The position numbers and the translations under genes were made by a program. The notes under the pieces were generated by a model. That model did not search any database. It saw nothing but the letters and a program-made list of their open reading frames with translations, and was not told the origin of the DNA. DNA of 64,000 bases from a virus. The DNA is taken from the IMG/VR virus record IMGVR_UViG_3300002054_000009; one strand, given 5' to 3'. This document shows positions 21,687-38,154 of the stretch, in pieces. How positions within the stretch are numbered: the first letter of the stretch is position 1; the number at the start of each line of letters is the position of its first letter.

Positions 21687-22560
21687 ATACTATTGGAGTT
21701 TGATTTACTGGTGTTGTTTCAACTACTATATTATTAGTAATTGGAAAAAACTTATCAGCAAATGCTGATATTGTTGAATATTCACTAGTTTCTACTCCAA
21801 AAATATGCATTACTGCAACAAACTCAGAAAAATCAATTATTCTGGGACTTGATTGGGGGTCTACGTAAGAATACGCGGTAGACCACTGTGGACCATAATC
21901 AGAATTTAATGATCTCTCCTTAAAGTCATTTCTATCTTCTAATGTTGCATGTTTTCCGTTAAATGCTGGGGTACTGTTTGGGTCATTTCCATCATCAATA
22001 TTAATATAAGTTGTTAAATTTTTAACTATTGTAAGTGAAATATTACTAGTACTACGCTCATTTGCATTGAAACTGTTTTGTACGACACGAATTTTTTTTA
22101 AATTTTCAACCCCTCGATTATTTAATATATTAACCACTCGTGCAGTAAATTCAGATGGACCACCCTCAGCAACGTGAATAGTCCCTCCATTATTAAGAAT
22201 TGCTTCCCATGTATTAGCAACTGTTTGTGTTGTGGTTGGCCAATTTTTAAATCGGGCATCTATACCAGTTGGAAACATATTAATCATATGCTCATAGTTT
22301 CCCACTAAAGTAGTTGTTCCTGCTTTTGCGGAGTTTACGGTTGTCCCAACTACAGCAAGATAATTCACTTCACCATAATTATCAAATAATTCTCTAGTGG
22401 CAATCATTGCTTGCAAGTCATCATAATCTGGCAAAGCATCCCAATGTAAAGCAACTAAATCGCCCGGTTGATATGTTGAATTGGGTGTATTGTTAGATTG
22501 TCCGAATGACGTACCGAAGAAAAAGATGGTTAAAAATATTACACTTAAAAAACGTCTCAT
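21586..22560 (-). CDS. N-terminal part of the same secreted protein (Sec signal peptide), separated by a frameshifting deletion
   Basis: MRRFLSVIFLTIFFFGTSFG signal; ends mid-module AVFGKTLPDARNAYANATG, which continues GGWVCASFNNPT in the other frame. Confidence 0.7.
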   Translation of the reverse strand: MRRFLSVIFLTIFFFGTSFGQSNNTPNSTYQPGDLVALHWDALPDYDDLQAMIATRELFDNYGEVNYLAVVGTTVNSAKAGTTTLVGNYEHMINMFPTGIDARFKNWPTTTQTVANTWEAILNNGGTIHVAEGGPSEFTARVVNILNNRGVENLKKIRVVQNSFNANERSTSNISLTIVKNLTTYINIDDGNDPNSTPAFNGKHATLEDRNDFKERSLNSDYGPQWSTAYSYVDPQSSPRIIDFSEFVAVMHIFGVETSEYSTISAFADKFFPITNNIVVETTPVNQTPIVFETQTVAVFGKTLPDARNAYANATGWWMGLCKF

Positions 22561-22613
22561 TGAATATGCTCCTCTATATAAACATATTTATAAATCTTAA
22601 GAGGAGAAGAAAA

Positions 22614-23540: not shown

Positions 23541-24180
23541 AATTTAACAATTCTTCATATTCCTCAAATCGATTTTTATCGATTATTTCTATTTTATTAT
23601 CGATATACCACATGATCCGTCTCTCCGCCTCTTTAAGTATTAATTCTTGAGTATCAAGGACGGAAAGTTTCGGAACCGGTACTGATCTCTCCATTCTTTT
23701 TGGTTTTGGTGAACATGCACTAATCACTGTACCAATGGCTTGCCAAGAACCTTTTAGGTCGATATCCTGTATATAAACAGTATCGCCAAAAGAAGTATAC
23801 ATCGTAACATTATTACCACGTCTCAGGACATCTAATATAGTCTGATTTGATATATCATAGAACATTATATTATTTGAATTTATAGCAACTTTAGTAGCAA
23901 ATCTAAATGCTCTATCATCATCTATCTCAAATGTTACACTATAATCAGTAGGGACTTTTGTGGATTGTCCACCCCTTGACATTACCATGTAGAGGTTGGG
24001 TGGTCGATCATCAATTATTGAACATGATATAGATAATGAAGTATTTCCTGATGCCGTGGTTATCTTCTCGTCAGGAGCTTGGCGTACTTTTACTGACCAC
24101 TCGGAAAATACTTCTACAGGAAACAACACTAAGCATGTACCGAAGATCAAATTTCTTAACAAGAAACAACATTTTCCCAT
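23524..24180 (-). CDS. hypothetical exported protein
   Basis: Hydrophobic N-terminal signal-like segment. Confidence 0.55.
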   Translation of the reverse strand: MGKCCFLLRNLIFGTCLVLFPVEVFSEWSVKVRQAPDEKITTASGNTSLSISCSIIDDRPPNLYMVMSRGGQSTKVPTDYSVTFEIDDDRAFRFATKVAINSNNIMFYDISNQTILDVLRRGNNVTMYTSFGDTVYIQDIDLKGSWQAIGTVISACSPKPKRMERSVPVPKLSVLDTQELILKEAERRIMWYIDNKIEIIDKNRFEEYEELLNFTNAQ

Positions 24181-24186
24181 ATTACA

Positions 24187-24510
24187 TCAATTATTATTTT
24201 TGGTATATATAGTATGGGCCGCAATTTTAGTATTGATTGCAGCATTAACAAGTGCGGGAAGTTTCGATTCCATGTCAGCGGAATTAGTAACTAAATTGTT
24301 TTGAAGATTGTAAATATCCATTAATAGCTGACTTATAGAATTTTCTATATCTGATATTCTCTGCTCAAAATTAACATGGATGTCTGGAGCACGCATATAA
24401 TGTTGATGAATTAACGAATCACTTTCCTGTTTATTCGAATCATAACAATTACACAGTTTATCAGCAATTAAATTTCCCGTCGTATCAATAACACTTCCGT
24501 AATTATTCAT
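24187..24510 (-). CDS. hypothetical coiled-coil protein
   Basis: Coupled to upstream ORF. Confidence 0.55.
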   Translation of the reverse strand: MNNYGSVIDTTGNLIADKLCNCYDSNKQESDSLIHQHYMRAPDIHVNFEQRISDIENSISQLLMDIYNLQNNLVTNSADMESKLPALVNAAINTKIAAHTIYTKNNN

Positions 24511-24934
24511 TATTCTCTCCCCGTTTATTCCAAAACAATGGAAACTTTTTTGGTTTATTATCTAATTGATTTTTTGTAGATGAATTCATAACCTGATTGG
24601 CATCATGAATCTCGCGCTTACGTTCACATACTTCCAACACAAAGCCCAAATCGATAAATGGTAATTCATCATCTATTCGTATTTCAGTTATAGCATCTTC
24701 TATTCTATCAGTAAGTATTTCGATTAATTGTTCAAGTTTTTGAGCACAAAAATGCACATTACCATCATCAATGGTTGTTTTCCCAAACATGGCTTGAATT
24801 TCGGGTGGCTCATCATCCCTAGAATGTCTTAATAGTACTGACTCTAACATCCATTCAAACTTTCGCTTCTTGAGAAATAATTTTTCAACATTCTCATATT
24901 TTGAGGCTGGCACATCTCCTATAGAATCATACAT
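24503..24934 (-). CDS. hypothetical phage protein
   Basis: 143 aa, operon context. Confidence 0.6.
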   Translation of the reverse strand: MYDSIGDVPASKYENVEKLFLKKRKFEWMLESVLLRHSRDDEPPEIQAMFGKTTIDDGNVHFCAQKLEQLIEILTDRIEDAITEIRIDDELPFIDLGFVLEVCERKREIHDANQVMNSSTKNQLDNKPKKFPLFWNKRGENNE

Positions 24935-24937
24935 AAT

Positions 24938-25189
24938 CTATGATTGTCCTATTTTTTTCTTTCGATATCTGGCAGGGCCGGGATCATCAGAACAGTTCCA
25001 CATACTAGTTCCTGTGTGCTCCCCCGGAATTCTGAAACTCCCTGCAGGAACAATAATCCTTCGTAGTGTTCGCTGCCCACATTTTGGACATTCTACAAGT
25101 GGATCATCTTTCATGCTCTGAGTGACTTCAAATTGATCACTATGGAGTGGACAATCTTTATTATCGCATGTGTATGTATACGTTGCCAT
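24938..25189 (-). CDS. FmdB-family zinc-ribbon regulatory protein
   Basis: MATYTYTC...FEV.QSMKDDPL.ECPKCG...LRRII. Confidence 0.85.
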   Translation of the reverse strand: MATYTYTCDNKDCPLHSDQFEVTQSMKDDPLVECPKCGQRTLRRIIVPAGSFRIPGEHTGTSMWNCSDDPGPARYRKKKIGQS

Positions 25190-25414
25190 AGAAAATATTC
25201 CTGTAATTTCTATGTATTATATCAAAGAATATACATCAATGCTAGTAGAATAATCACACTGGTGATGATCACCAAATCTATCCCCCAAAAGGTAAGATGA
25301 TGAATATTATTGTGATAGAATTTTTTAAGTTTATGACTAATAGTATTCATGTTCTATGGCCCGATATATTTGAAGTTATAGATTACACAAATCAATCTCT
25401 TAAGTCAATGAGAG

Positions 25415-25987
25415 TTAGTCCTTGCCTTTATCTTCCAGTGCTTTAGCTTCACGCGCCTTTTGAAGATTGGTTGGACTCTTTCGCTTCTTCCTCCCCGCAC
25501 CTCCCGCAACATCAGTTAATGATGGTTTATCTTCTCCAACACGCTTCCTTGATAGAAACGCTATTGCTTTATCAAATGTGCTATTCATATGTTCTGCACT
25601 TGAAACCATTTTTTCATGGTGTTCCTTATTTCGATTATCCTGCCCATGTGAATCTTTTTGTGGTAATCGCGCTCGAATTTTTGGAAGTTCAATTAATGCT
25701 AATTTTAGTGCTGCCTGAACAGTATCTACATCATTCTCTTTAATTGCATCACTTGTTGCTTGGGATACTGCTCTTGAATTACCGATAGTGTAGGGTCCGA
25801 GTTTCTGTTCACCAGTAGTATAGATAGTGTGAATTTTTTTAGCACCGCGCTTTGCAGCTGCATCATCTGCGACTTCTCTAGCCTTTCGTGCATCAACATC
25901 AAATCGATTTTTGTTTAATCCCCCCACTACTTTATTAGTGGCAGTTCGAAATTTTCGTGGTCCTTCATACAATTGTTCAAGATTCAT
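25415..25987 (-). CDS. basic hypothetical protein with MxLx[EQ]LxE N-terminus (late, possible head-internal protein)
   Basis: Starts MNLEQLYE at 25987; TAAATA at 26022-26027 on minus strand. Confidence 0.6.
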   Translation of the reverse strand: MNLEQLYEGPRKFRTATNKVVGGLNKNRFDVDARKAREVADDAAAKRGAKKIHTIYTTGEQKLGPYTIGNSRAVSQATSDAIKENDVDTVQAALKLALIELPKIRARLPQKDSHGQDNRNKEHHEKMVSSAEHMNSTFDKAIAFLSRKRVGEDKPSLTDVAGGAGRKKRKSPTNLQKAREAKALEDKGKD

Positions 25988-26075
25988 GTGTAGCATTCCC
26001 AAAGATTAAATGTTATGCTATTATTTAGTCGTTTTTACCTGCGAAGTAATAAATATCAATAAAGGAGTGTATTCC

Positions 26076-26366
26076 ATGAAACTGAAGCAACTACACGAAA
26101 AAATTAAATTTGCACATTCTGGGTTTGATCATATTCGAAAAGAGTTGGCGAAAGATCTTACAAAGGGTGAGAGGAATCAATTGGATGATCTTGATAGAAA
26201 AATAACAAATGTCACCGATGAGGAAGATAAAGAGCGCCTTGAGACTATGGCACATGCATTACATTTAAAATTAATGAATAAATATCGATCCAAGGCACAT
26301 TCTCGTGATGATCTTCGAAATAAGAAGGAAGATAAGCGATTTAAAAAGGAAATGCGAGGGGAATAA
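26076..26366 (+). CDS. charged hypothetical protein with MxLx[EQ]LxE N-terminus (late)
   Basis: AAGGAG RBS, MKLKQLHE; TAAATA at 26050. Confidence 0.65.
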   Translation: MKLKQLHEKIKFAHSGFDHIRKELAKDLTKGERNQLDDLDRKITNVTDEEDKERLETMAHALHLKLMNKYRSKAHSRDDLRNKKEDKRFKKEMRGE

Positions 26367-26367
26367 T

Positions 26368-26652
26368 TTAATATTTCCTTTTTAGTCTTTCTAAATCTAT
26401 AGATTTCATAACAATATCATATACAGATATGCACGGACATACTTCTAAGCAACTCGATGAACCAGAACCAGACTGTGCTACCCTCTTCCTAAAGTCCCTA
26501 TCAGTATTTAACCGACGTATAATATCTACGTATCTAGCATCAGCTTCTTCTCGTGATTCAAATATAGTCCCCTGTATAATGTCGGGGACCATATTATCAT
26601 GTGAATCACTCCAAAAATAATCATTTGGTTTAGTATTTCTTATAAAAAACAT
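26368..26652 (-). CDS. RLK-tail family A
   Basis: GTIFESREEA; tail IDLERLKRKY. Confidence 0.7.
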   Translation of the reverse strand: MFFIRNTKPNDYFWSDSHDNMVPDIIQGTIFESREEADARYVDIIRRLNTDRDFRKRVAQSGSGSSSCLEVCPCISVYDIVMKSIDLERLKRKY

Positions 26653-26673
26653 ATACTTATTTATCCCAAAAAT

Positions 26674-26982
26674 TTAACACCGATTTATACGCTTTAAATT
26701 ATCAATAGACCTTTGTAATGCAGTAATTTCCATCGCAACAAGATTAGTATCGCAATGTAGTAAAAATTGGCGAGTGGAAAAAAGTGTATTCTTAATCATG
26801 TTAGATTCTAACCTATTTTTCATAAGATCTATAACTTCCTGCGCCTCAGCAGATGAAGAAAATATTTTTGCACCCATTTGACTATGAAAAACACTAAGAC
26901 CCAAAATTCTATCGTAGTCCAACTCATAATCTTCTAGATAGAAATTTGTGCTGGTGTTTCTTATTGAATATAATCGCTTCAT
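26674..26982 (-). CDS. RLK-tail family A
   Basis: AKIFSSSAEA; tail IDNLKRI. Confidence 0.7.
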   Translation of the reverse strand: MKRLYSIRNTSTNFYLEDYELDYDRILGLSVFHSQMGAKIFSSSAEAQEVIDLMKNRLESNMIKNTLFSTRQFLLHCDTNLVAMEITALQRSIDNLKRINRC

Positions 26983-27281
26983 CGTATAGCTCGCATTCGT
27001 TCAATACCTAGAAAATCACCAAGATCATATTCATAAATTCGTAGCCCATCAGCTATAAACTGTAGCATCAAGACACCTTCACCATCATAAGCCAAAGCAA
27101 ATATGTCTTCTTTGAATTTAGTTGCATCTGTCATACAATCAAATAAGTGTGCCTCACCCACAACGGTTGTCAACAATTCTAAAGACCGCCCACCTTCGGA
27201 ATTTCTATCATCATTAATGAATAATTTGTTGGTGGAAATAAAATGATTAAATTCTTGATGGTATAGAAGATATTTTATCAT
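26979..27281 (-). CDS. RLK-tail family A
   Basis: AHLFDCMTDA; tail LGIERMRAIR. Confidence 0.7.
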   Translation of the reverse strand: MIKYLLYHQEFNHFISTNKLFINDDRNSEGGRSLELLTTVVGEAHLFDCMTDATKFKEDIFALAYDGEGVLMLQFIADGLRIYEYDLGDFLGIERMRAIR

Positions 27282-27577
27282 GTTTTAATTTTTTGCATTC
27301 TTTCTAGTTTGAGAAATTTTTTCATCTTTTCAATGGTTATAGCTTCTATGTTTATTATATCAGATAGGGTGTTGGAGATCAATATACTACCTGATGTTAG
27401 CATCAATAATGATTTATGTTTATCTGCTGAGTGATATGTATCAAATAGTGCAACCCTAGTCATATTAGACGAAAATATATTGGTTAACAAATCAACAGAT
27501 TCGGACGCGAATGCAGCATCGGTGGTTACATAAGAATTATTAGCAACGTTCCTCAATACAAAATATTTAACAGTCAT
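27278..27577 (-). CDS. RLK-tail family A
   Basis: VALFDTYHSA; tail LKLERMQKI. Confidence 0.7.
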   Translation of the reverse strand: MTVKYFVLRNVANNSYVTTDAAFASESVDLLTNIFSSNMTRVALFDTYHSADKHKSLLMLTSGSILISNTLSDIINIEAITIEKMKKFLKLERMQKIKT

Positions 27578-27914
27578 ATCGAATATTCTTTAAACGTTCA
27601 AGATTGAGATATCTTTTAAACTTCGTCGTATAGTCATTGTCGGTAACAATAACGAAATCATTCATTATAATACAGTTGTCCATGTTTTTACTAATATCTC
27701 CATTCCAATATTTTATTTTATTCAATGCATCTTCTGCAGATTCTTCTGATGTATAAGGACGTGCTTTACTTGGATCACCTGAAAGAATCATTTCATCAAA
27801 AATAAAACTAGCTGATACTGGTGGAGAATTTGATTTATCGATATAAAATCCCATTTTTGTTTCGGTTATTCCGGTGAAGTAACTCATGGTTTGTGGGCGA
27901 ATAATATAAAACAT
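27567..27914 (-). CDS. RLK-tail family A
   Basis: ARPYTSEESA; tail LNLERLKNI. Confidence 0.7.
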   Translation of the reverse strand: MFYIIRPQTMSYFTGITETKMGFYIDKSNSPPVSASFIFDEMILSGDPSKARPYTSEESAEDALNKIKYWNGDISKNMDNCIIMNDFVIVTDNDYTTKFKRYLNLERLKNIRYDC

Positions 27915-27958
27915 AGTGAAGATTCCTTAAAACAACATTTTTATATTTTTATAATATA

Positions 27959-28271
27959 TCATATACCTGTAAATGCCAATAACTTCATTCGGTTGATCCC
28001 CACCATATCCTTGAAATAGGGCTTAGAGAATGATACCACTCGCATTCTACCAATTAGAAATGTCATTAATAATGAAGTATTTTTCATATTCTGGAACCGT
28101 TTAACGTGTGCATCGGCGTCACTATATTCAGGAAAAAAAATAAGCCCCACATAGAGTTTGGGTTAATATAGATTTAGTGGTATCGTCTGAGCCATCTGTT
28201 GAGACAGCAATATCAACAGTCGTTAGGTATGCCCCAACTGTATCTATCTGTATTACATAAACATTATCCAT
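27959..28271 (-). pseudogene. RLK-tail family A member frameshifted in a T8 tract
   Basis: MDNVYVIQI...GAYFF, T8 at 28133-28140, then PEYSDADAH...VGINRMKLL in the other frame. Confidence 0.7.
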
Positions 28272-28273
28272 AA

Positions 28274-28540
28274 TTAAACTTTCTGTAATCGTCTAATAGC
28301 ATCATATATTGGATCTTTTACAACCTTCTGATTAAATCGTTTGGTACTAATAAAATTCTCAATTATATATTCTTCTGCTGCCTCGCGACTTTTAAACTGC
28401 ATACACCCATTAAACCATATGCGAAATTTGCAACCTATTATATCATGATGAAGATAATAAATTGTGCCCTCTGGGTCGTCATCACGTATTCTATCACAAG
28501 TTATTATAAATTTATCGTCCACGTTAACTATAACCACCAA
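28274..28540 (-). CDS. RLK-tail family A
   Basis: CMQFKSREAA; tail DAIRRLQKV. Confidence 0.65.
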   Translation of the reverse strand: MVVIVNVDDKFIITCDRIRDDDPEGTIYYLHHDIIGCKFRIWFNGCMQFKSREAAEEYIIENFISTKRFNQKVVKDPIYDAIRRLQKV

Positions 28541-28583
28541 GAAATGGCACGAAAATAGTATATTTTAAATTTTCTTCTTTTTG

Positions 28584-28919
28584 TTATACGATACTCTTGA
28601 GTCTTTCTAGACCAATAACTTTTGACATATATTCTCTATTGACTTGGCGAACAACTATACCATCCTCATACAAAGATAACACATTTTCTGGATCATGAGA
28701 TACTTTATACCTGATCATTCCCCGAGCATCTGCCGACCTCCTCACATATTCCATTGCATGTAAAGCATCTGCTATATTGAAATACAATATAGCACTAAAG
28801 ACATCATAGGTAAAATAATCATAATCAACAAACCTGTTTTGAAAATGCATATCACTATAGGCTATTTTTACCGTATATATTTTTTCAATATTGCCGAATG
28901 GTATATTACGTTTCAACAC
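28584..28919 (-). CDS. RLK-tail family A
   Basis: AILYFNIADA; tail IGLERLKSIV. Confidence 0.7.
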   Translation of the reverse strand: MLKRNIPFGNIEKIYTVKIAYSDMHFQNRFVDYDYFTYDVFSAILYFNIADALHAMEYVRRSADARGMIRYKVSHDPENVLSLYEDGIVVRQVNREYMSKVIGLERLKSIV

Positions 28920-29293
28920 CGACTAATATCCTGCATTCGGAAAATAGTTTCCGGTAATGATATTTGATTTACATAGAAACCATCTCGAATACATAAACAA
29001 TTTACATCAATTACTTTTGGTTTTTCAAGATTGAAACTACATAACATTTTACCTTTATGATATTTGATGGCAGTATTTACAATTGTTTCGAGAAATTCAT
29101 ATGCAGTTGACCAACCCATAAAACTGTAAGTAATCTCGTCTGAAAGATTTAATATTCTTATTCTATTATTACTAGAATAAACAGCACTACTAATCGAAAA
29201 ATCAGTATATTTCACACTAATGGCGTAGGCACTATCCAACTTTTTATAAAATAGTCTATCATAATTCTGTAAAATTACATTATTATAATCCAT
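28913..29293 (-). CDS. RLK-tail family A (divergent)
   Basis: Tail TIFRMQDI. Confidence 0.6.
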   Translation of the reverse strand: MDYNNVILQNYDRLFYKKLDSAYAISVKYTDFSISSAVYSSNNRIRILNLSDEITYSFMGWSTAYEFLETIVNTAIKYHKGKMLCSFNLEKPKVIDVNCLCIRDGFYVNQISLPETIFRMQDISRC

Positions 29294-29311
29294 TTCTTGA
29301 TAACTCTCTCT

Positions 29312-29625
29312 TTGACATCCACCCCACGTCTAAAAGACGGGGGATTCCTCCAGCGAGACGGCCATGCCCGACCGCGAAATATATTTGTTCGTCCGCATCA
29401 CTGGCAAATACATTCTTATTCAAGTTATGCCAAATGGCACGAACATAACTCGGTTATATTGCTTTATTGCTTTATTGCTTTATTGCTTTATTGTTACAAC
29501 CCGATGGCCTAATAACCGGATACGTCGAGTTGATGGAAAGATGTTACTTGATTTGATTGAATATGTCAAGCACTTTCGTGCCTTATATCCCCATATCTGA
29601 AGAAAGGGGATTTACAGCACATTTG
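29312..29625 (-). mobile_element. non-autonomous IS200/IS605-family element (no tnpA/tnpB) with internal promoter and omegaRNA-like right end
   Basis: Left-end hairpin CCCC..GGGG preceded by AAAT; inserted 3' of TTAA with no target duplication; right-end hairpin preceded by GAAT and ending GTCAA; TTGACA-17-TAACAT at 29569-29541. Confidence 0.8.
29458..29495. repeat. 8-bp tandem repeat TTTATTGC (about 4.5 copies) inside the IS605 derivative
   Basis: Read directly. Confidence 0.85.
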
Positions 29626-29707
29626 TTAATCTATCAATTTTTATATCCGCCCTCAAATAAGCTTCGAAAATATTCGAAGCTATTAAAATATCTACAGATT
29701 CTTCAGT
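29626..29707 (-). pseudogene. 3' fragment of a recent duplicate of gene 29991-30332, split by the IS605 element
   Basis: About 7 differences in 82 bp versus 30008-30089; TEESVDILIASNIFEAYLRADIKIDRL. Confidence 0.8.
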
Positions 29708-29715
29708 TTTGGTTG

Positions 29716-29994
29716 TCACGAGATTTCTTCTCCGCTTCTTCGAATTTCCTTAGTTCTCCGAAGTTCTATTAAATTCATAAAATCACATTTAATAATTTCA
29801 CAATCACGAAACATCATCATATATAAATATGAAGCACTACTCAGCAGTTCCAAGTGATCTTCGGCCTTCTTTACTGATGTAAAAAACAAAGCTTTCTTGA
29901 TATCCACTACAAACATATTTTGAATGTCAGTCGATGAATCAAAGGCAATGTAAGAATTAATTGAACTGTCATATATTGCATATACATTTTTCAT
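29716..29994 (-). CDS. RLK-tail family A
   Basis: ALFFTSVKKA; tail IELRRTKEI. Confidence 0.7.
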   Translation of the reverse strand: MKNVYAIYDSSINSYIAFDSSTDIQNMFVVDIKKALFFTSVKKAEDHLELLSSASYLYMMMFRDCEIIKCDFMNLIELRRTKEIRRSGEEIS

Positions 29995-30332
29995 CGAATA
30001 ACTCTTTTTAATCTATCGAGTTTTATATCTGCCTTCAAATAATCTTCAAAAATATTCGAAGCTATTAAAATATCTGCAGATTCTTCAGTAATACATTCAG
30101 GATATCCATCAAAAAAATATTTAAATTTCTTTCTTTTTGGCATCCTAGCTTCTAATATATAATCAATAGACCAAATAGCATTTTGTTTAGAAGAAAATGT
30201 GTAACAATCAAGAATGTCATCAGTAAACATTATTAATTCTTTACCCTCATCGAAATTTTTATAATATGCTGGTCTATTGGTAAGTATGAGCGTATACAAT
30301 TCGGTCGAAGATTTTGACATTCTAGTTTTCAC
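29991..30332 (-). CDS. RLK-tail family A
   Basis: CYTFSSKQNA; tail IKLDRLKRVIR. Confidence 0.7.
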   Translation of the reverse strand: MKTRMSKSSTELYTLILTNRPAYYKNFDEGKELIMFTDDILDCYTFSSKQNAIWSIDYILEARMPKRKKFKYFFDGYPECITEESADILIASNIFEDYLKADIKLDRLKRVIR

Positions 30333-30399
30333 TTAATTTTTCATAGCCATATCTTACCATGATTGGAATACTATTAATATGAAATAGGTCAGTTAATAT

Positions 30400-30690
30400 C
30401 TAATCTAAATCATCCATACCGAAGAGCGGTAGCCGCTTAATTTGTTGCAGCCTATCGAGAATACTTTTAAAGGGTGATTTTTCAATTTTATAAGAATATA
30501 CACCATGTTCAAATACTATATCACAGAAAGTATTCGCTTCTTCAAGTGTATTAAATGTAATACAACCAAGTTCTACTGATTTGAAATCATAAAGGCTGTT
30601 AATGATATTATTTTCTTCATGAAGAAATATTGTTTTCATGTTTGGATTAGAAGAGGGTTTATTGAGTATGATTACATATTCTATTTTCAT
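30400..30690 (-). CDS. RLK-tail family A
   Basis: CITFNTLEEA; tail ILDRLQQI. Confidence 0.7.
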   Translation of the reverse strand: MKIEYVIILNKPSSNPNMKTIFLHEENNIINSLYDFKSVELGCITFNTLEEANTFCDIVFEHGVYSYKIEKSPFKSILDRLQQIKRLPLFGMDDLD

Positions 30691-30726
30691 TGTGGTGTTT
30701 TTCTAATTTTCTGCAATCTGGGTACA

Positions 30727-31002
30727 TTAATTAATGTTTTTTCGTAATACTTCACACATCCTATCAACATTAATAATTTTAGACAAGTGAATTATTTCGA
30801 ACATCCCATCAGCAAAACCATACATTTTACTTGCTCTGTGAACTGCCTGATTAGCATTATCCATAGTTTTCCAAGCAGTTGCATTGTTTATAATTCCAGT
30901 GAGATTCATACTGGAATCATCACCACCACATAGATAGACGTTTGGTAATATAATTCCATCCTTACCATCGGGGTAAACTGTTAATTTAACAATATACATC
31001 AA
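30727..31002 (-). CDS. RLK-tail family A
   Basis: ATAWKTMDNA; tail INVDRMCEV. Confidence 0.7.
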   Translation of the reverse strand: MMYIVKLTVYPDGKDGIILPNVYLCGGDDSSMNLTGIINNATAWKTMDNANQAVHRASKMYGFADGMFEIIHLSKIINVDRMCEVLRKNIN

Positions 31003-31266
31003 TATTGCCTAGTGACAGTCTTCATCCTTAAAATTTCAAGACTACCAAACAAATCATATTCAACAATTCGTAAGTCCTTAACAATTCTTACGTGATGGAG
31101 ACTGTTTATGGCATTTTCAGCACTTTCCATACTAGTAAAAAGTTGCGCATGATGTATATGTCTGGTGAACAAACTATTAGGATTGTTGGGGCTAGCAAAA
31201 TATGTCCGAAAGTCCGTATTTAAAACATACATATCCCGCACAAACTCACGAATAATATAATTCATA
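30999..31266 (-). CDS. RLK-tail family A
   Basis: Probable start MNYIIR; AQLFTSMESA; tail LEILRMKTV. Confidence 0.7.
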
Positions 31267-31548
31267 ATCTTTGACATCCACCCCACGTCTAAAAGACGGG
31301 GGATTTGCGACACATTCACTAATTAATTCAGAAGCATGGATTATTAGTATATTACTATTATCCATATTATGATATTCAACCATTAAATCATCTACAACTT
31401 TACTGACTTCGTAGTATGTATACCAGAGTTTCGCAAGGTTACAATTATCAAATAATTTCATTTCGCCTGAAATTTCCCCAACATACTTGGTTGAGTTTGG
31501 TACAGACCAAATGGATGGTTGCCAATCTTTTATTTCAATAATATACAC
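31246..31548 (-). CDS. RLK-tail family A member whose tail is replaced by the mini element
   Basis: AKLWYTYYEV core; C-terminus reads through element sequence (NPPSFRRGVDVK). Confidence 0.65.
   Translation of the reverse strand: MYIIEIKDWQPSIWSVPNSTKYVGEISGEMKLFDNCNLAKLWYTYYEVSKVVDDLMVEYHNMDNSNILIIHASELISECVANPPSFRRGVDVKDYELYYS
31271..31318 (-). mobile_element. 48-bp minimal IS605-derived palindromic element
   Basis: 31271-31305 identical to 29312-29346, joined to a left-end-like TGAATGTGTCGCAAAT. Confidence 0.75.
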
Positions 31549-31549
31549 A

Positions 31550-31831
31550 TTAACACCGCTTAATTTCTAACAATCTATCAAGTTTGCACAAACCCCAAAT
31601 ATCAATTCTAATCACCTCAGCTGCTACAATATCAAGTCGAATATGACACAGCTTCTCTAGTTCATCATTAGCCTCTTCTTTACGTTTCCATACCATCGCA
31701 TCTTCTAGGCCATTACAAAACCTATTGTGGCCGATTGTGGTGATATTATTATAGTCAAGTATATAGGTATTCTCCAAAGATGAAACAGCAAATCCCGGTG
31801 GCCTACACTTAGTAATTTTAATAGTGTACAT
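31550..31831 (-). CDS. RLK-tail family A
   Basis: AMVWKRKEEA; tail CKLDRLLEI. Confidence 0.7.
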   Translation of the reverse strand: MYTIKITKCRPPGFAVSSLENTYILDYNNITTIGHNRFCNGLEDAMVWKRKEEANDELEKLCHIRLDIVAAEVIRIDIWGLCKLDRLLEIKRC

Positions 31832-31836
31832 AATTA

Positions 31837-31920
31837 ATCAGTATAGCATTTTTAGTCGTGATAAGTTTATACCATACCTCATTACATCCATTATAGAAAT
31901 TAATAATAGATAACTAGTTC
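31837..31920 (-). pseudogene. orphan RLK tail remnant
   Basis: ...MDVMRYGINLSRLKMLY* with no intact 5' part. Confidence 0.55.
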
Positions 31921-31950
31921 ACATTTTATTCGGAAAAAATTTTCTCTGGA

Positions 31951-32220
31951 TCAAATTTCGGATTTACAATTACTCAATATTGATTTCATTTGTTTCAACC
32001 CAATTAAATCTTTAAGAATATCTTCCATATCGATTATTTCAGAAGAGCTGGCAGCGCCATTCCAATCATTTACGGTCCCGATTGCAGATTCAACTTCATC
32101 TCTAGTATTCCACACTCTAGCATCTGATGCATCTACTGTAGTGTCAATCCGCACAAGAGAAACCCACTTGATGAAATAAGTTTTATCATCAAAAACAACA
32201 GTAATTCCATAAAATTTCAT
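31951..32220 (-). CDS. RLK-tail family A
   Basis: ARVWNTRDEV; tail IGLKQMKSI. Confidence 0.7.
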   Translation of the reverse strand: MKFYGITVVFDDKTYFIKWVSLVRIDTTVDASDARVWNTRDEVESAIGTVNDWNGAASSSEIIDMEDILKDLIGLKQMKSILSNCKSEI

Positions 32221-32227
32221 AGTTTTA

Positions 32228-32509
32228 TTATATCCTAATAATATTTTTCAATCGAGTTAAACCTAAATCATATTTGCCAATTTCATCTAGATTAACAATC
32301 TCAACTTTCCTTAATCCTTTAATTCCAAGCAACCACTCTGTTAATAATTTCATATCCTCATTAGCATCATCCTCTGTTATCCATATCCGAGCTGCCCATG
32401 CATATGAAGTCATATCACAATATGTCTGATTAATTATAGGCAATACATTGATGTTACTTGCATAATAACAACTATCATTAATGATTATTCGAATTCCATA
32501 ATATATCAT
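32228..32509 (-). CDS. RLK-tail family A
   Basis: ARIWITEDDA; tail LGLTRLKNI. Confidence 0.7.
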   Translation of the reverse strand: MIYYGIRIIINDSCYYASNINVLPIINQTYCDMTSYAWAARIWITEDDANEDMKLLTEWLLGIKGLRKVEIVNLDEIGKYDLGLTRLKNIIRI

Positions 32510-32781
32510 TTTATACTCACAGATTTCATTCTATCTATACCCAATTCTCCTCGAATTTTAGTACATTCAACAATAGAAGAATTTACCAACTCTTGAGTAA
32601 ATGCAGTCATATGAATAAACTCTACTTTTATTTGAGTAAGCACTGCAGTTGCAGCTTCTCTGCTTGTGAATATAAATGCTTTGTGTGGATTGGGAGATGC
32701 AAATATATAATCTTTGTCATATGGATTATTACTCGCAATAAAAATATTATATTGCTCGTTAAAAATAATATATACCTTCAT
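32506..32781 (-). CDS. RLK-tail family A
   Basis: AFIFTSREAA; tail LGIDRMKSV. Confidence 0.7.
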   Translation of the reverse strand: MKVYIIFNEQYNIFIASNNPYDKDYIFASPNPHKAFIFTSREAATAVLTQIKVEFIHMTAFTQELVNSSIVECTKIRGELGIDRMKSVSIK

Positions 32782-33068
32782 GTCAAATTCTTCATTCGAT
32801 TGATGTTAATTTGATCTCTAATTATTTCTTCTGCATCAATGACATGTATTGATAATCGCATACTCTGTATTTTATTACAAAGCGCCAATATTTTTTTTAC
32901 TAATTCTTCGTCATAAAATATCACTGCGTTTGCGATATTTTGGCCAAATGTTGGCCAATCATCAACATCAACATTAACAACGTAATCAAAATTTTCGATA
33001 GTTCGTGTGTTGAGATCCACAGTACGCATTTCAATAGCCATATATTTAAGATTATATAATTTTCCCAT
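32778..33068 (-). CDS. RLK-tail family A
   Basis: AVIFYDEE; tail ININRMKNL. Confidence 0.7.
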   Translation of the reverse strand: MGKLYNLKYMAIEMRTVDLNTRTIENFDYVVNVDVDDWPTFGQNIANAVIFYDEELVKKILALCNKIQSMRLSIHVIDAEEIIRDQININRMKNLT

Positions 33069-33102
33069 GAGATGCCATCTTATTTTAATTCATCTGGATT
33101 AT

Positions 33103-33321
33103 TTAATCACCACCTTCTATCGCTGCCATCATATCTTCATGTTCCAAAATAGTAACATCAAGCATTTTGGCCATTCGCCTATACATTCGTAACACGCTGG
33201 GCGTCTGGTCAGAGTCATTACAACTCGAATCAAATATATCTCGCAAATCTGCGATTTCTTGTATAGAAGCATTGGCAATAGTTTCGATGATTATTAATGT
33301 TTCATCCGGATCAATTTTCAT
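33103..33321 (-). CDS. hypothetical helical protein (no RLK tail)
   Basis: 72 aa. Confidence 0.55.
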   Translation of the reverse strand: MKIDPDETLIIIETIANASIQEIADLRDIFDSSCNDSDQTPSVLRMYRRMAKMLDVTILEHEDMMAAIEGGD

Positions 33322-33326
33322 TATAT

Positions 33327-33542
33327 TTACCTACGTGGATTTCCTGTTAGTGCATCTAATAGTTGAATCATATGTTGGAGTTCGGATCTTTCCACTTCCA
33401 ATAAACGACACGTCGAAATAATGTCACCAAGCTCTACTCTAACATTATGTATACGACCAGTGGTTTGATCTGATTCACATTTATCATCAAATGCGTTTTC
33501 TTTGTCTAGTTGTTCTGCTGCCCACTTTCGACCATCACCCAT
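33327..33542 (-). CDS. hypothetical helical protein (no RLK tail)
   Basis: GGAGAG RBS, 71 aa. Confidence 0.55.
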   Translation of the reverse strand: MGDGRKWAAEQLDKENAFDDKCESDQTTGRIHNVRVELGDIISTCRLLEVERSELQHMIQLLDALTGNPRR

Positions 33543-33620
33543 TTCATCTCTCCTAATTGTTTTTAGAACATGGATTATACCTATATCCTATCACATCCTA
33601 ATATCATTTAGCCAACATAA

Positions 33621-33890
33621 TCAAATTCTCTGTATTGCCAACATTTGGTCAATTTTACATTCATCACGTAAGAAATCACTTAGATTTGTGGTAGTATATT
33701 GCATAACATGCTGTGATTTATTTAACTCATCTACGAATTCATCAATATCATCCTTATTATTCCAAATTTCTGCGGCTGTTATATTAGCAGAATGTCCACA
33801 TACTATATTCGTGTTATTTTTGTGTGATGTTATATAACTTACACGGCATAGAAATATGTCAGTACACTTAACCACATACATATTAACCAT
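33621..33890 (-). CDS. RLK-tail family A
   Basis: AAEIWNNKDDI; tail CKIDQMLAI. Confidence 0.65.
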   Translation of the reverse strand: MVNMYVVKCTDIFLCRVSYITSHKNNTNIVCGHSANITAAEIWNNKDDIDEFVDELNKSQHVMQYTTTNLSDFLRDECKIDQMLAIQRI

Positions 33891-34069
33891 CTTCGTATTT
33901 CCTTTTTAATTTTTCCAAGAGAGCCAATTCAATTTCCCGTTTATCTCTTGATTGGCGGCACTTCGAAAAGATCAACGCTTATAATCTCCCCCTCTGAATT
34001 ACACACTTCATCATTTCATGTCCTCATCAATATTTTAATATAACACAAACTAAAATATGTATTTGTGAA

Positions 34070-34258
34070 CTAATACTGCTTCAATCGCAATATAATAAGA
34101 TAAAGTTCATCCAACTCATCATTCATCTCTGCCAATATTGTCTTGGCTTCCAAAAACTTTTTTATATGGCGTCTAGAAAGCTTTCCTGTGTTTTGTCTGG
34201 CATTGTAGTACGCAACAACACCCTTCATTCTATCCATATTAGCGGGTGTGTATTTCAT
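34070..34258 (-). CDS. helical protein with RLK tail
   Basis: Tail LIILRLKQY. Confidence 0.6.
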   Translation of the reverse strand: MKYTPANMDRMKGVVAYYNARQNTGKLSRRHIKKFLEAKTILAEMNDELDELYLIILRLKQY

Positions 34259-34524
34259 AAAAGTCTATTTACTAACTTCATTCTATTCAATTTAATACAT
34301 TCAGTTCGTATAATATGAGTGGCGTCAATAATTTCTAATGCTTCTTTTACTGCTGTAGATCGAATACGTGAAATAATTTTATAAACATCTACCATACTAA
34401 AAAATAGAGATGCCTCATTTATACGGTCAGTTGCTAATAATGCACCTCCAGGATTTTCATACATGTAAAGTGGGATATTGCTGCCGCGCAAAAATTTATC
34501 TACTCTAATAACATACATAATCAA
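34255..34524 (-). CDS. RLK-tail family A
   Basis: EASLFFSMVDV; tail IKLNRMKLV. Confidence 0.7.
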   Translation of the reverse strand: MIMYVIRVDKFLRGSNIPLYMYENPGGALLATDRINEASLFFSMVDVYKIISRIRSTAVKEALEIIDATHIIRTECIKLNRMKLVNRLL

Positions 34525-34766
34525 GATTTATCTATTGCCCTTAGTCTGTCAATATTAACAAATTCTCGAAGATGATTTTTAATATTAGTTACAACACCAT
34601 AACAGTTCCATTCGTATTTGAATGTGTTGAGTGTATCGTATGCTTCGTCAAATGTCTCCCACAATCTGGCTTCACGAAGTCTGGGTGTCATGAATATTTC
34701 CTCTTCATTCCAATGAGTAACATAACGTATATTATTGATGCCGATTTCTATTATATACATAATCAA
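34521..34766 (-). CDS. RLK-tail family A
   Basis: ARLWETFDEA; tail VNIDRLRAI. Confidence 0.7.
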   Translation of the reverse strand: MIMYIIEIGINNIRYVTHWNEEEIFMTPRLREARLWETFDEAYDTLNTFKYEWNCYGVVTNIKNHLREFVNIDRLRAIDKS

Positions 34767-35020
34767 ATCCTTTTTACAGATGCCATTCGTTTAAGCCCCA
34801 ATTGATCCCTAACATATGAATCCTCAACCAAATCCACCCTATATTTCTTGGGGGATTTATCATAGATTAGTGTAAATTTTGAAAGCCATAACTGTGCATC
34901 CTCTTTCTTATACCACATATACGCATTACGCAAAAGGTAGGTGGCCTCAATAGGCTCCAGCTCTCTAATATAATGCCCATGATTTTTATCTTCCTTAACG
35001 ATATACATAATTTTTATCAA
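34763..35020 (-). CDS. RLK-tail family A
   Basis: AYMWYKKEDA; tail LGLKRMASV. Confidence 0.7.
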   Translation of the reverse strand: MIKIMYIVKEDKNHGHYIRELEPIEATYLLRNAYMWYKKEDAQLWLSKFTLIYDKSPKKYRVDLVEDSYVRDQLGLKRMASVKRI

Positions 35021-35128
35021 TCACTTGTTTAGGATACAGGATAGTTTATCATATTAATGTATAGTCGTTCACTAATAATGATTTTCAAACTATGATATAG
35101 TCCCTATCCCAAAGAGGACAAAATCTCC

Positions 35129-35425
35129 ATGCCAGAAATATCAATCAAGACCGGCTACTTTTTTGCTATCATCTTCACTCTATTCGGATGGATCACGGCC
35201 ATCAACCTCAGTCTCGTTCCACAATTCATTATATACGCCTCCCTTGCTTGGTTCATCACCACCTCATGGAAAGTCCAACAACTTGAATTAGGAGCAATTC
35301 CTTATTTTATCATCTTTATTGGATATAGTCTTGGAGTATTAGCGGGCAATGCTGCCTACTTTCTCAAGTATGGATATACATCATCAAACACGTTATCTTT
35401 TCTATGGGATCTAATCACACCTTAA
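35129..35425 (+). CDS. small membrane protein (about 3 TM segments)
   Basis: Hydrophobic segments; GAGG RBS. Confidence 0.65.
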   Translation: MPEISIKTGYFFAIIFTLFGWITAINLSLVPQFIIYASLAWFITTSWKVQQLELGAIPYFIIFIGYSLGVLAGNAAYFLKYGYTSSNTLSFLWDLITP

Positions 35426-35471
35426 CTCGTTATTTTGTGTTATAGTCTATTCAAACAAAGGAAAATTAATT

Positions 35472-35771
35472 ATGAAATCATTTATTAAGTTTGCATCAGC
35501 CACCCTTTTAGGTAGTGTCCTGACAGTAGGATTCATCTTCTCCAGTGCTCATGCATTTAGTCTCTGGAATATCGTCACGACAGGTGATTGGGAAACTATC
35601 ATTCCACTTAAACAAAAGATTGATGTTAAGGGAGAGGACTTGCGAATCTATACATGGCCTGCACCATTAAACTCTAGTTATGCGTGTTCCGCAGTCTTTT
35701 CAAATGCAGGCACTAGTACAGTATGTTTCCCCGTTGATCCAAATCATGAATTAGTGAATGTTGAAGATTAA
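35472..35771 (+). CDS. exported small protein
   Basis: Signal peptide ending SAHA; Cys pair. Confidence 0.65.
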   Translation: MKSFIKFASATLLGSVLTVGFIFSSAHAFSLWNIVTTGDWETIIPLKQKIDVKGEDLRIYTWPAPLNSSYACSAVFSNAGTSTVCFPVDPNHELVNVED

Positions 35772-35863
35772 AAAGGTCTGAGAGAATCCAAAATTTTTTT
35801 AGAAATTTTTAGAGATGTCGGGAATAATGGTGGGGTATTGTTTTTAGAGAGTTAGAAGAGTCG

Positions 35864-35912
35864 TTTTAGAAAGAATGATTTTAGAAAGAATGATTTTAGA
35901 AAGAATGATTTT
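35864..35912. repeat. 15-bp tandem repeat TTTTAGAAAGAATGA x3
   Basis: Read directly. Confidence 0.9.
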
Positions 35913-36278
35913 CTTCAGATTGTGACATATCTCCCAGTGGTATCCCATCACAAAACAAAACATTCTTAAATTGTCTACCACATCACACCACGATGGCATC
36001 ACAAAAAATAATTCTAATACCTAGACACCATCACAAAGTTACTACAAACATTTCTCTATAGTGTGAACATCATTCCATATCATGAAGAACTACATCACAT
36101 GTTAGATATCATGTTACTGTGTCACATAAATGAATATCCAATTGTGTGATGGATGCACAATGTGAGGAATGTCTCATATGAACTGTGTCACAAAAAAGAA
36201 AGAACTATGTCTCTCTTTTGATTATTGTGGACTGTAGCACAAAAAGAAGATTCCATTCTTCTTTTGTTGATTTGTGAT

Positions 36279-36557
36279 TCAGTACTCATTCCAGAACATT
36301 GAGTAATCATCTTCCATTATTGGGTGATCCATCACAAAATCACCCATCTCTTCGCGCACATTTTCCATTTCTGAGGCTTCATCCACAATCTCGTTAATTG
36401 CCCCGTGATCTATCTCATCATAATTGTGTCTTGTGTGCTCATCCACATAACGATCAACACACCCATTCACAAAACTCGATTCTGTGAAACCATTCACAAA
36501 ATCAAGGACAATTTCACGAACAGCAATAACAAGAGCATCTTGTGATACAGTAGACAT
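36279..36557 (-). CDS. acidic hypothetical cassette protein
   Basis: Own TATAAT promoter near 36595. Confidence 0.65.
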   Translation of the reverse strand: MSTVSQDALVIAVREIVLDFVNGFTESSFVNGCVDRYVDEHTRHNYDEIDHGAINEIVDEASEMENVREEMGDFVMDHPIMEDDYSMFWNEY

Positions 36558-36940
36558 ATTTGAATTCCTGTTTAGGATGAGAGGATGTGTCCATTATACC
36601 GCGCTGCCCGAGAATATTCGTGCTCCCATCACAAATTTGTTCGCAATCGAAAATTATTTTTTGTGATCGAAGTCCGATGATATATTTGTCCCGTTTTTGT
36701 GATCGCGTTCGCAGAACGTACATCTGGGATAAATGTCTCACCGTGCATAGTAGACATTGAGACATTTCTTCCAATAATGCGTTTTGTGTGGTTCATCACA
36801 AAAACGAGACAAATCTCTCAAGGGACTTGCATCACAAAAAATAATTCTGAAAGCTGTGCTTTTTTGTGCGCTATGCACGGACAGGGCCGATAGCTCGGCC
36901 TATAATGGTCACATCTTCTACGCAATCAGGTACACGCAAC

Positions 36941-37189
36941 ATGGCTAACACTGAATCACTGTTCAAAAATCTTGAAGTTCTCACCATGCGTGAGCGCGGT
37001 GACTATAGAGAGTGGTCACTGGATAGTGACGAGGCCACCGTCATAAAGACGGTAAAAGGCGAATACTTTTATGATAGTCTTTTTCATGTATCGGAAGCCC
37101 TGTTGGGTGATGTCCGTAGGACAGTGCCATATGAATTCTTCAGAAGTGAGGATTGTAGTAAACAAAAGTTTGAGATCTTCACAATGTGA
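36941..37189 (+). CDS. hypothetical cassette protein
   Basis: TATAAT 36901; terminator 37198. Confidence 0.65.
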   Translation: MANTESLFKNLEVLTMRERGDYREWSLDSDEATVIKTVKGEYFYDSLFHVSEALLGDVRRTVPYEFFRSEDCSKQKFEIFTM

Positions 37190-37197
37190 TCTAATTC

Positions 37198-37223
37198 AAA
37201 AAAGGGGCTTCGGCCCCTTTTTT
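37198..37223 (+). terminator. intrinsic terminator GGGGC-TTCG-GCCCC-T7
   Basis: Same hairpin at 41304-41325 and 46131-46155. Confidence 0.9.
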
Positions 37224-37686
37224 GTGATCTATTTTTATTTTTGTAGGTTTGAGATATTTCTCACATGTCAAATCAATCACAAAAAATAATGTGAACTTCT
37301 CGCATCGTTTTTTCTTTGTATGCCTTCGAGATAGTTACCCTATACACTGACATCACTCGCACCTATACGGCTCGGTATCGACGCTCAGAGCATCAGGAAA
37401 CGATAGTTTGAACCAACGGCTGACAGTAATCTATAGCTAACAGACCAAAGGATCAACCCACAAGATATTGTGATGGAGTAGACATTACAACATTTCTCAC
37501 ATTGTGATGTAAGTTTGTTGAGACATTTCTCTCAATACCACGTTCTGCGAACGCGATCACAAAAAAGGGACAAATACCTCATCGGACTTCGATCACAAAA
37601 AAATAATTCCAGAACCGATCCTTTTTTGTGACCCAAGCACGGGACATAACCGATCAATCGACCTACAATGGCACCACACCAACGCA

Positions 37687-38154
37687 ATGAGACACACGAC
37701 TATGACCGCATCTGCTACCCAGTTCGCTATTGTTGCCGTTTTTCAGGTTCGTGAGAACTACGCCGCCCATGATGGTTTTACGGGCGAGTATTACTGGAAG
37801 TGTAAGGGAGGCGAGGAGGCCGTGTCCGATCTTATGTCGCTCGATACCCTTATGGGTATGGATCAAGCCGCTAAGGAAGCGCTGGTCGCTTCTATTGCGC
37901 CCGAGTCTAACGACTATTATGAGCACACGCTCATAGATTGGGAAATTGTTTCCCTTGACTCCGAATCTGCGAACAGGGTCGCAGATTTTATTGCCGAATC
38001 TCCGGGCGAGGATATTGATTTCCTGCGGTACAAGTTTGGTAACGATTTCCTATTTGATTGGGCCGTGAAGCAGCGCCCAGAAATAGCAAAAAATACTTCC
38101 GACCCTTTCGGATATGCGAGGCGGTTGGGGATTGAGCTACCGACCGCTGCGTAG
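37687..38154 (+). CDS. hypothetical cassette protein
   Basis: TACAAT 37664; higher GC than flanks. Confidence 0.7.
   Translation: MRHTTMTASATQFAIVAVFQVRENYAAHDGFTGEYYWKCKGGEEAVSDLMSLDTLMGMDQAAKEALVASIAPESNDYYEHTLIDWEIVSLDSESANRVADFIAESPGEDIDFLRYKFGNDFLFDWAVKQRPEIAKNTSDPFGYARRLGIELPTAA

Follow-up and report, generated by a model that had tools for sequence, protein, structure and literature searches.

A tandem array of small proteins with divergent bodies and a shared C-terminal tail in an uncultured T4-like phage

The internal proteins of the T-even phages were described as diverse defence proteins that have only a short capsid-targeting sequence in common, whereby the known examples are injected anti-restriction proteins (PMC3012670). 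For the T4-type phages, hyperplastic regions were reported to be rich in PeSL promoter-terminator cassettes, which mediate modular shuffling (Arbiol et al. 2010, PMC2839356; PMC4122927). For encapsulins, targeting peptides such as NTGGDLGIRK and DGSLGIGSLKG were identified, in which an 'LGI' element is combined with a C-terminal Lys (PMC7925596). The present work deals with a stretch of 64,000 nucleotides (nt) from the virus record IMGVR_UViG_3300002054_000009 (the window), which derives from a large, uncultured, T4-like phage of about 281 kb found in an algae-associated metagenome, and within it with a tandem array of small genes at 26368-35020, the members of which are referred to as family A. 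The family-A genes are real and homologous, and their products combine a strongly divergent body with a better conserved C-terminal tail, for which the function of a docking tag is tentatively suggested.

Family A and its C-terminal tail

The array, its representative member and a second tail-bearing array were delineated as follows.

26368-35020, minus strand: the whole tandem array, from the map of open reading frames (ORFs), alignment A1, a six-frame ORF scan with a hidden Markov model (HMM) and a leave-one-out test.
31951-32220, minus strand: the representative member P0010 (89 amino acids, aa), modelled by AlphaFold2 with the family alignment.
61316-63323, minus strand: a second array of coupled, all-helical proteins of about 70 aa that end in R-L-K-x-[VI], from the tail HMM, the ORFs and alignment A4.

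The array comprises 23 intact family-A genes (79-126 aa), four to five fragments and three unrelated small ORFs (34070-34258, 33327-33542 and 33103-33321), and its co-oriented ORFs tile 26368-35020 with about half of their junctions being stop/start overlaps of 1-11 nt. Alignment A1, which holds the 23 intact ORFs, revealed a start motif with Y in 19 and an aliphatic residue in all 23 members, and a core motif that reads A (17/23)-x-x-[FWY] (23/23)-x-[ST] (16/23)-x-x-x-A (18/23). When the full family HMM was run on the six-frame ORFs of the window, members scored 33-67 bits, the background remained at or below 10.5 bits, and no further member was found in the rest of the window. Leave-one-out HMMs recovered 18 of the 23 members at 17-37 bits (E 1e-4 to 1e-10), the background being 617 six-frame ORFs of the window among which the top unrelated ORF scored 10-16 bits. 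Moreover, phmmer connected 29 member pairs at E<0.01, with the adjacent genes 31951-32220 and 32228-32509 being the nearest pair (E 1.6e-8). Nearly all copies are mutually 10-28% identical (10-24% to the first aligned member), and the closest pair reaches about 28%. The initial annotation had proposed about 28 co-oriented, translationally coupled paralogues with common start, core and tail motifs; the single tandem family, its co-orientation, the coupling (by overlaps at about half of the junctions) and the three motifs were confirmed, the homology being significant by both leave-one-out HMM and phmmer, whereas the number has to be given as 23 intact genes plus four to five fragments.

The AlphaFold2 model of P0010 (mean predicted local distance difference test, pLDDT, 88.4; predicted template modelling score, pTM, 0.72) possesses predicted strands at residues 4-10, 13-20 and 25-28, a helix at 40-57, a further strand at 59-64 and a C-terminal helix at 65-88 bearing the tail. 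The conserved N-terminus M-x-Y-x-I makes up the first strand of this predicted fold. As conservation in the body is confined to core positions, which are hydrophobic, Ala or helix caps, variation would fall on its surface; the isoelectric points range from 4.5 to 9.5 across members. Comparison with solved structures gave no relative, the best Foldseek hit having an E of 0.64 and the best VIA-align hit a Z of 4.7, which is under the noise level of that tool. Small phage inhibitors that were listed by VIA-align at Z 3-4.6 (a chain of an anti-CRISPR complex and T4 Dmd) lie below noise and were hence rejected as evidence. In libraries of predicted structures, many uncharacterised phage proteins of 60-90 aa, DUF2849 and the terminal domains of some HNH/GIY-YIG nucleases were matched (template modelling score 0.5-0.66), and a search of the ESM Atlas with two marginal members returned nothing informative.

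The tail is described by the motif [LI]-x-R-[LM]-K-x-[IV], which is located on a C-terminal amphipathic, basic helix. In A1 its R is retained in 20/23, [ML] in 21/23, K in 12/23 and [IV] in 21/23 members, and a further R is found in 12/18; accordingly aligned, tails are 31% identical in pairwise comparison as opposed to 17% for the bodies. The tail Arg is encoded by CGA (eight times), AGA (nine), AGG (three) and CGT (once), nine codons are used at the preceding Leu/Ile position, and at the nucleotide level, if a recent duplicate is set aside, tails have just one repeat in common, a 27-nt match at 78%. Because codons vary at the conserved positions, the tail is kept as protein and not as DNA, and, as judged from these codon tables, it is selected at the protein level.

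A profile built from the tail alone identified extra C-termini beyond the array, almost all of which belong to co-oriented small genes at 58-64 kb. When the helical family of the second array was compared with family A by hhalign, the 17 tail columns only were aligned (P 6e-4), and AlphaFold2 predicted three helices for this family (pLDDT 89), with the tail residing within the last helix. As unrelated scaffolds end in the same tail, it constitutes a portable module, and from the sequences at hand it is portable across at least three or four scaffolds; the second array is not part of family A. The differently bodied small proteins that end in the tail or a close relative of it are encoded at 61316-64000 (minus), 58439-59004 (minus; a pair), 59053-59696 (plus) and 57645-58079 (plus), and the endings …DRLKRIERVC, …VIERLKNI and …IKELKNRTYE are examples from beyond family A.

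Further observations concern the ends of these proteins. Four of the 23 family-A members terminate in Cys (26674-26982, 27567-27914, 28913-29293 and 31550-31831, all minus strand; …NRC, …RYDC, …SRC and …KRC), as does the helical-family member 62025-62237 (minus; …ERVC). The non-family ORF 34070-34258 (minus, 62 aa) starts tail-like (…NMDRMKGVV…) and ends with …LIILRLKQY*, and hence looks as if tail remnants surround a helical body.

Duplication, decay and insertion within the array

Besides intact genes, the array and a contig from the same sample (L003) revealed the following features.

27959-28271, minus strand: a frameshifted copy, its N-terminal piece at 28128-28271 and its C-terminal piece at 27959-28150 in the other frame, recognised by the family HMM.
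29612-29719, minus strand: a truncated copy, comprising the 3' third of a gene only and split by an insertion (HMM 20.5 bits; repeat D2).
31832-31900, minus strand: the orphan tail GINLSRLKMLY*, in a 119-nt gap between two members (three-frame gap translation and motif table).
33883-33975, minus strand: an orphan tail ORF of 30 aa, ending in ...LALLEKLKRKYEDG* (gap translation and motif table).
29312-29625, minus strand: a 314-bp non-coding insertion (sequence, promoter scan, DNA fold and the tail restored on its removal).
31268-31305, minus strand: the 38-nt hairpin end of the insertion once more, without a mismatch (exact repeat, none expected by chance).
35021-35128, no strand assigned: the divergent intergenic region preceding the array; its only promoter-like sequence, TTGTCC-18-TATCAT, is a weak match to sigma-70.
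31374-31495: L003 deletion within one array member.
30069-30205: L003 deletion within another member, causing a frameshift.
29461-29722: L003 deletion of the truncated copy and the left half of the insertion.

Both pieces of the frameshifted copy are matched by an HMM that was built without it (17.2 and 12.3 bits), the frameshift lies just upstream of a T8 run, and the sequence is identical in the independent contig L005. Over 85 nt, the truncated copy shares 91% identity with the part of gene 29991-30332 that encodes the tail (29623-29707 vs 30005-30089); the ratio of non-synonymous to synonymous differences (pN/pS) of about 0.5, obtained on 31 codons, fits relaxed constraint on a dead copy. 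Gene 29716-29994 has a tail copy on both sides. Along the array, similarity of the bodies drops weakly with distance (Spearman rho -0.19, permutation p 0.003), which fits tandem duplication followed by near-saturating divergence, and since nearly all copies are only 10-28% identical, most duplications appear to be old or saturated. With these data, birth-and-death of a lineage-specific tandem family, as initially proposed, is supported by the pseudogene, the orphan tails, the recent partial duplicate and the insertion, whereby the frameshifted copy, the recent duplicate (expected at about 90% identity) and both orphan tails (INLSRLKMLY and LLEKLKRKY) had been predicted and were found. The accompanying idea of a gene accordion, i.e., of recent change in copy number, was not borne out, as near-identical copies are not seen and the sole recent repeat has a length of 85 nt. 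The initial annotation also took diversifying selection as a putative driver and counter-defence or host range as putative roles; nothing in the data linked the proteins to either role, and the paralogues, for which no orthologues were found, are saturated in divergence.

The 314-bp insertion consists of a hairpin, a hairpin with a GNRA loop, a promoter (TTGACA-17-TAACAT), a (CAATAAAG)x4 repeat and a terminal hairpin, with subterminal hairpins being predicted by DNA folding. Its deletion in silico joins ...IKIDRL to KRELSRNGL* and thus yields a complete in-frame tail (...IKIDRLKRELSRNGL*), which overlaps the start of the next gene. The insertion possesses no ORF of its own and none of transposase size, and it matched nothing in Rfam even at E up to 1. 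Gene 31246-31548 has the 38-nt end in place of its tail, as a second copy that lies a short way upstream of where the next gene starts; Logan unitigs break at both 38-nt copies, and loose ends in one source run (X1) place the hairpin core in a third sequence context. Within the window, a second full-length copy of the insertion was not found, only its 38-nt right end recurring. Where two copies hit by insertion sequence (IS) elements had been proposed, the disruption of two tails, by the insertion and by the 38-nt copy, therefore stands, and the assignment to an IS does not: an IS of the IS200/IS605 or another type was not supported, as no transposase is encoded and no Rfam match was obtained. 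By its composition, the element appears equally close to a PeSL-like promoter/stem-loop cassette and to a protein-less transposon. Its promoter is preceded by two hairpins, the cassette is not repeated between array genes, and promoter-like sites in total (54) are below the shuffled expectation of 66.6.

With regard to transcription, the intergenic region 35021-35128 is likely to harbour the start of a polycistronic array transcript. In a late-promoter scan, the array had no site for the late-type motif TATAAATA on its strand, and the motif was not enriched in the window. The 12-mer TTCGTGCCATTT has two exact sites just upstream of array genes, at 28542-28553 and 29432-29443 (minus), the latter falling inside the 314-bp insertion; five sites were counted when one mismatch was allowed, as compared to 0.38 expected, and the 12-mer may be a regulatory or hairpin motif.

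L003 is a 3,139-bp JGI contig that matches window positions 29184-32846 with one mismatch, minus the three segments listed above (122, 137 and 262 bp, respectively). As the right half of the insertion is kept, L003 is the derived form, and as the deletion junctions are without repeats, an assembly artefact is unlikely, if less so in view of the depth of only 3-5x in the run matching L003; one unitig of this run ends at 31372, beside the first junction. In the assemblies L004 and L005/L006 the array is unchanged save for one CAATAAAG unit (8 nt, differing in L004). Copy number is the same in L004, L005 and L006, and the L003 deletions lie within units and do not alter their number. Ongoing loss of genes from the array is thus plausible.

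The phage and the distribution of family A

The proteins of the array sit on contigs of up to 280,865 bp. The window encodes a thymidylate synthase, a primase-like protein and both topoisomerase II subunits, the topoisomerase II being at best about 35% identical to those of sequenced phages. Near-identical DNA was not found in the phage collection; relatives in IMG/VR are L001 (65% identity, same sample) and L002 (50% identity, a 292-kb contig), the record of the latter encoding a gp23-type capsid protein. A search with this capsid protein returned thousands of relatives, including a large clade of metagenomic phages with gp23 proteins at 60-93% identity to that of the relative G002, and none of the relatives was attributable to the genome of the array phage, the capsid, scaffold and protease genes of which lie outside the 64-kb window. 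Window DNA was present in three public runs only, all from one algae-metagenome sample.

Neither Pfam nor PHROG gave an assignment for the 23-28 array sequences: no PHROG match and no consistent Pfam match was obtained even at E up to 10. When 1.84 billion representative proteins were searched with the profile, 31 matches were obtained. The full-length, tail-bearing matches inspected were all the window's own proteins or variants from the same sample; the outside matches inspected covered only the first ~60 profile positions, none carried the tail, and several were repeat units in large uncharacterised proteins (P0018, P0020, P0021 and P0028). A word-indexed search of 5.8 billion proteins added nothing, the 292-kb relative, scanned in full, contains neither family A nor tail-bearing ORFs, and the family profile had no matches in the relatives G001 and G002. 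By these searches, family A is lineage-specific.

Several observations were made elsewhere in the window. An HNH/DUF723 homing-endonuclease gene (12663-14198, plus; PHROG 559, E 1.7e-119) is located between the genes for the topoisomerase II large subunit (10832-12703) and the gp52-like subunit (14869-16224), and a 467-aa protein (264-1667, minus) has a strong BNR_4 match (PF15892, E 1.5e-35), i.e., resembles a carbohydrate-active propeller. A tRNA scan and an Rfam scan of the window had no matches. At position 21612, L004 holds 29 extra bases that fuse the window ORFs 21586-22560 and 19794-21686 into one 954-aa protein, so that in the window a large late gene may be present in a variant form, with a deletion or frameshift; TATAAATA occurs at 22585-22592 (minus). 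A 15-nt tandem repeat (AAGAATGATTTTAGA-like) at 35856-35912 varies in copy number between assemblies, with about 106 extra bases in L004 and Logan unitigs breaking there. To the right of ~35.9 kb the depth almost doubles, from ~28 to 48 in X1 and from ~282 to 510-530 in the second source run (X2), as compared by contig depth between ~35900-38000 and 24000-35890, and G+C increases from ~0.33 to ~0.41. The depth step could stem from a terminal repeat, from a segment that a second strain has in common with the phage, or from an array region that only part of the population carries.

Readings of the tail and comparison with known systems

Considering the divergent bodies, the conserved tail and its occurrence on other scaffolds, family A is suggested, if with less than even confidence, to present variable binding bodies on a shared docking tag. 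The family would have grown by repeated tandem duplication followed by extreme divergence, and the array would now be subject to erosion by frameshift, truncation, insertion and deletion. The body would form a compact three-strand, helix, strand unit, the core of which is fixed and the surface of which differs with each copy. The tail would dock all tail-bearing proteins to one common partner or location, and the variable bodies would supply differing binding specificities, so as to constitute a set of accessory or host-interaction factors.

A number of points weigh against this proposal. The fold searches yielded only uncharacterised small phage proteins and generic folds, and among the genes flanking the array a zinc ribbon was the sole informative domain. 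Five members (30400-30690, 28913-29293, 28584-28919, 28274-28540 and 26674-26982) are marginal and were counted in on position, size and tail. The array is nearly invariant among three assemblies from the same sample, and rapid turnover thus rests on one short, low-coverage contig.

Instead of a tag, the tail may furthermore be a helix with a structural role or one for self-association, whereby each protein would di- or oligomerise or paralogues would pair, with no common external partner being involved. This explanation accounts for the finding that the modelled tail lies within a long helix of 24-34 residues with hydrophobic residues at i, i+3 and i+6, a helix that reaches a pLDDT of 91-96 in the helical family. 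A complex prediction for the paralogues P0010 and P0007 gave a score of 0.00, which by the rule of the tool is no verdict either way. A structural helix, however, needs no identical R-[LM]-K-x-[IV] on unrelated folds, and self-association is hence considered unlikely, if still deserving attention.

Another explanation takes the tail as a virion-packaging signal that addresses the prohead scaffold or capsid interior, so that the proteins would be injected with the DNA as pre-made effectors; the tail would then be a C-terminal analogue of the T4 signal. With 9-14 kDa, members are in the range of small ejected proteins, T4 IPI* being an example, and the phage lineage possesses a T4-type gp23 capsid protein. 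The T-even internal proteins, being diverse small defence proteins with only a short targeting peptide in common, offer a precedent (PMC3012670), and 7 of 25 tails contain L/I-G-L/I ahead of the basic R-[LM]-K, which recalls the encapsulin targeting peptides (PMC7925596). Yet the T4 signal is N-terminal and cleaved while the array tail is C-terminal, the tail is predicted to be helical and continuous with the body while encapsulin peptides are extended and Gly-rich, and the late-type motif is absent from the strand of the array. Packaging is hence regarded as improbable. The specific form of this idea, namely that dozens of different small proteins are loaded into a T4-like jumbo-phage capsid for co-injection by virtue of the R-[LM]-K-x-[IV] helix as their C-terminal cargo tag, is more doubtful. 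If true, family A would be a large, fast-evolving arsenal of pre-made effectors, loaded by a mechanism that parallels those of encapsulin cargo and of the T4 capsid-targeting sequence, yet relies on a new signal and operates at a far greater scale. An assignment of family A to the T4-type internal proteins themselves was not supported, as the N-terminus is the first strand of the fold and the shared peptide is C-terminal.

It is similarly improbable that the tail sets place or lifetime of early proteins, be it as membrane-targeting amphipathic helix or as C-terminal degradation or chaperone-recognition signal. Tails are basic (mean charge +1.7), bodies mildly acidic (mean -2.8), and hydrophobic residues alternate with Arg/Lys in the tail, a pattern which loosely resembles MinD/FtsA-type membrane helices, the MuA-type ClpX signal and DnaK-binding motifs and serves as a lead only. 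The hydrophobic moment of the tails, however, is spread widely and often low (0.05-2.07), and the distance from the motif to the C-terminus varies between 0 and 12 residues, which is a poor fit to a protease that recognises the end.

Conservation at the level of nucleotide sequence or translation, whether of the tail as a site at which cassettes recombine, as a regulatory RNA motif or as a nascent peptide that promotes stop/start re-initiation in coupled genes, is very unlikely. Tails do adjoin stop/start overlaps in tightly packed arrays, and gene 29716-29994 lies between two tail copies just as recombination-mediated insertion would leave it, but synonymous and codon-family variation is found at every conserved position and hardly any nucleotide repeat exists between tails other than the recent duplicate. 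On account of the codon tables, nucleotide-level conservation was rejected; a role of the tail in translational coupling was rejected as well, since uncoupled genes have equally good tails, namely those that a gap of 21-119 nt separates from the next gene and the gene with which the array ends. Finally, it is hardly credible that most of the array is duplicated DNA in decay and without function, its ORFs persisting by chance or inertia, for although several fragments and a pseudogene exist, the same-sample variant with three deletions suggests dispensability and the nearest relative lacks the family, 23 uninterrupted ORFs of 79-126 aa tile one strand at 32% G+C, core and tail residues are retained despite saturated divergence and with synonymous variation, and the predicted fold is confident.

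More than a few paralogues of one small gene are seldom met with in a phage genome, and 23 intact copies of a new family, together with other families of the same tail, constitute an unusually large expansion. It represents a natural experiment in which the surface of the body is free to change and a tail of 7-10 residues is fixed. Should the tail act in docking or targeting, as suggested above, its partner would explain ~35-45 genes of unassigned function at once, and the tail would possibly serve as a short tag to direct proteins in phage-infected cells or into capsids.

With the T-even proteins IPI, IPII and IPIII and their polymorphic loci, the array has in common that small, highly diverse proteins with one short conserved peptide are encoded in variable loci of T4-type phages. 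In T4 the capsid-targeting peptide occupies about 10 residues at the N-terminus and is cleaved by the prohead protease, whereas the peptide of the array is a C-terminal helix with an unrelated sequence. Each T-even phage has a few internal-protein genes, in contrast to 23 or more genes in one family plus other tail-bearing families in the array phage. Like the tail, encapsulin cargo peptides are short C-terminal tags on unrelated proteins, their destination being an HK97-fold shell; they are flexible, Gly-rich and located behind linkers, while array tails are predicted to be helical and mostly lack Gly, the likeness hence being a lead only. At the level of the fold, the body matches small phage proteins of the three-strand, helix, strand type and DUF2849 (PF11011), none of which has the tail; the Pfam score for DUF2849 was 19 bits on one outside protein, which is below the cut-off, and no array member was matched.

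Viral accessory genes that multiply in tandem and then diverge or collapse are also known from the segmental amplification of counter-defence genes, namely poxvirus K3L and T4 tifA (PMC9391042). Gene accordions of this kind show recent changes in the number of near-identical copies, whereas the array holds copies of 10-28% identity and one recent duplicate of 85 nt. Variable accessory regions of T4-type phages are in themselves a familiar setting: hyperplastic regions likewise hold small non-essential ORFs between core genes and are sites of insertion, deletion and replacement, and their PeSL elements combine, as the 314-bp insertion does, a stem-loop with a sigma-70-like promoter, this likeness being drawn from their description. 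An expansion on such a scale and a C-terminal tag across folds are not described for these regions in the literature found. Unlike hyperplastic regions, the array consists of paralogues of one family that are mostly coupled without intergenic cassettes, with one promoter/stem-loop element only, which argues for its growth by tandem duplication. The array hence indicates that, besides cassette shuffling, tandem duplication can enlarge the accessory regions of large phages.

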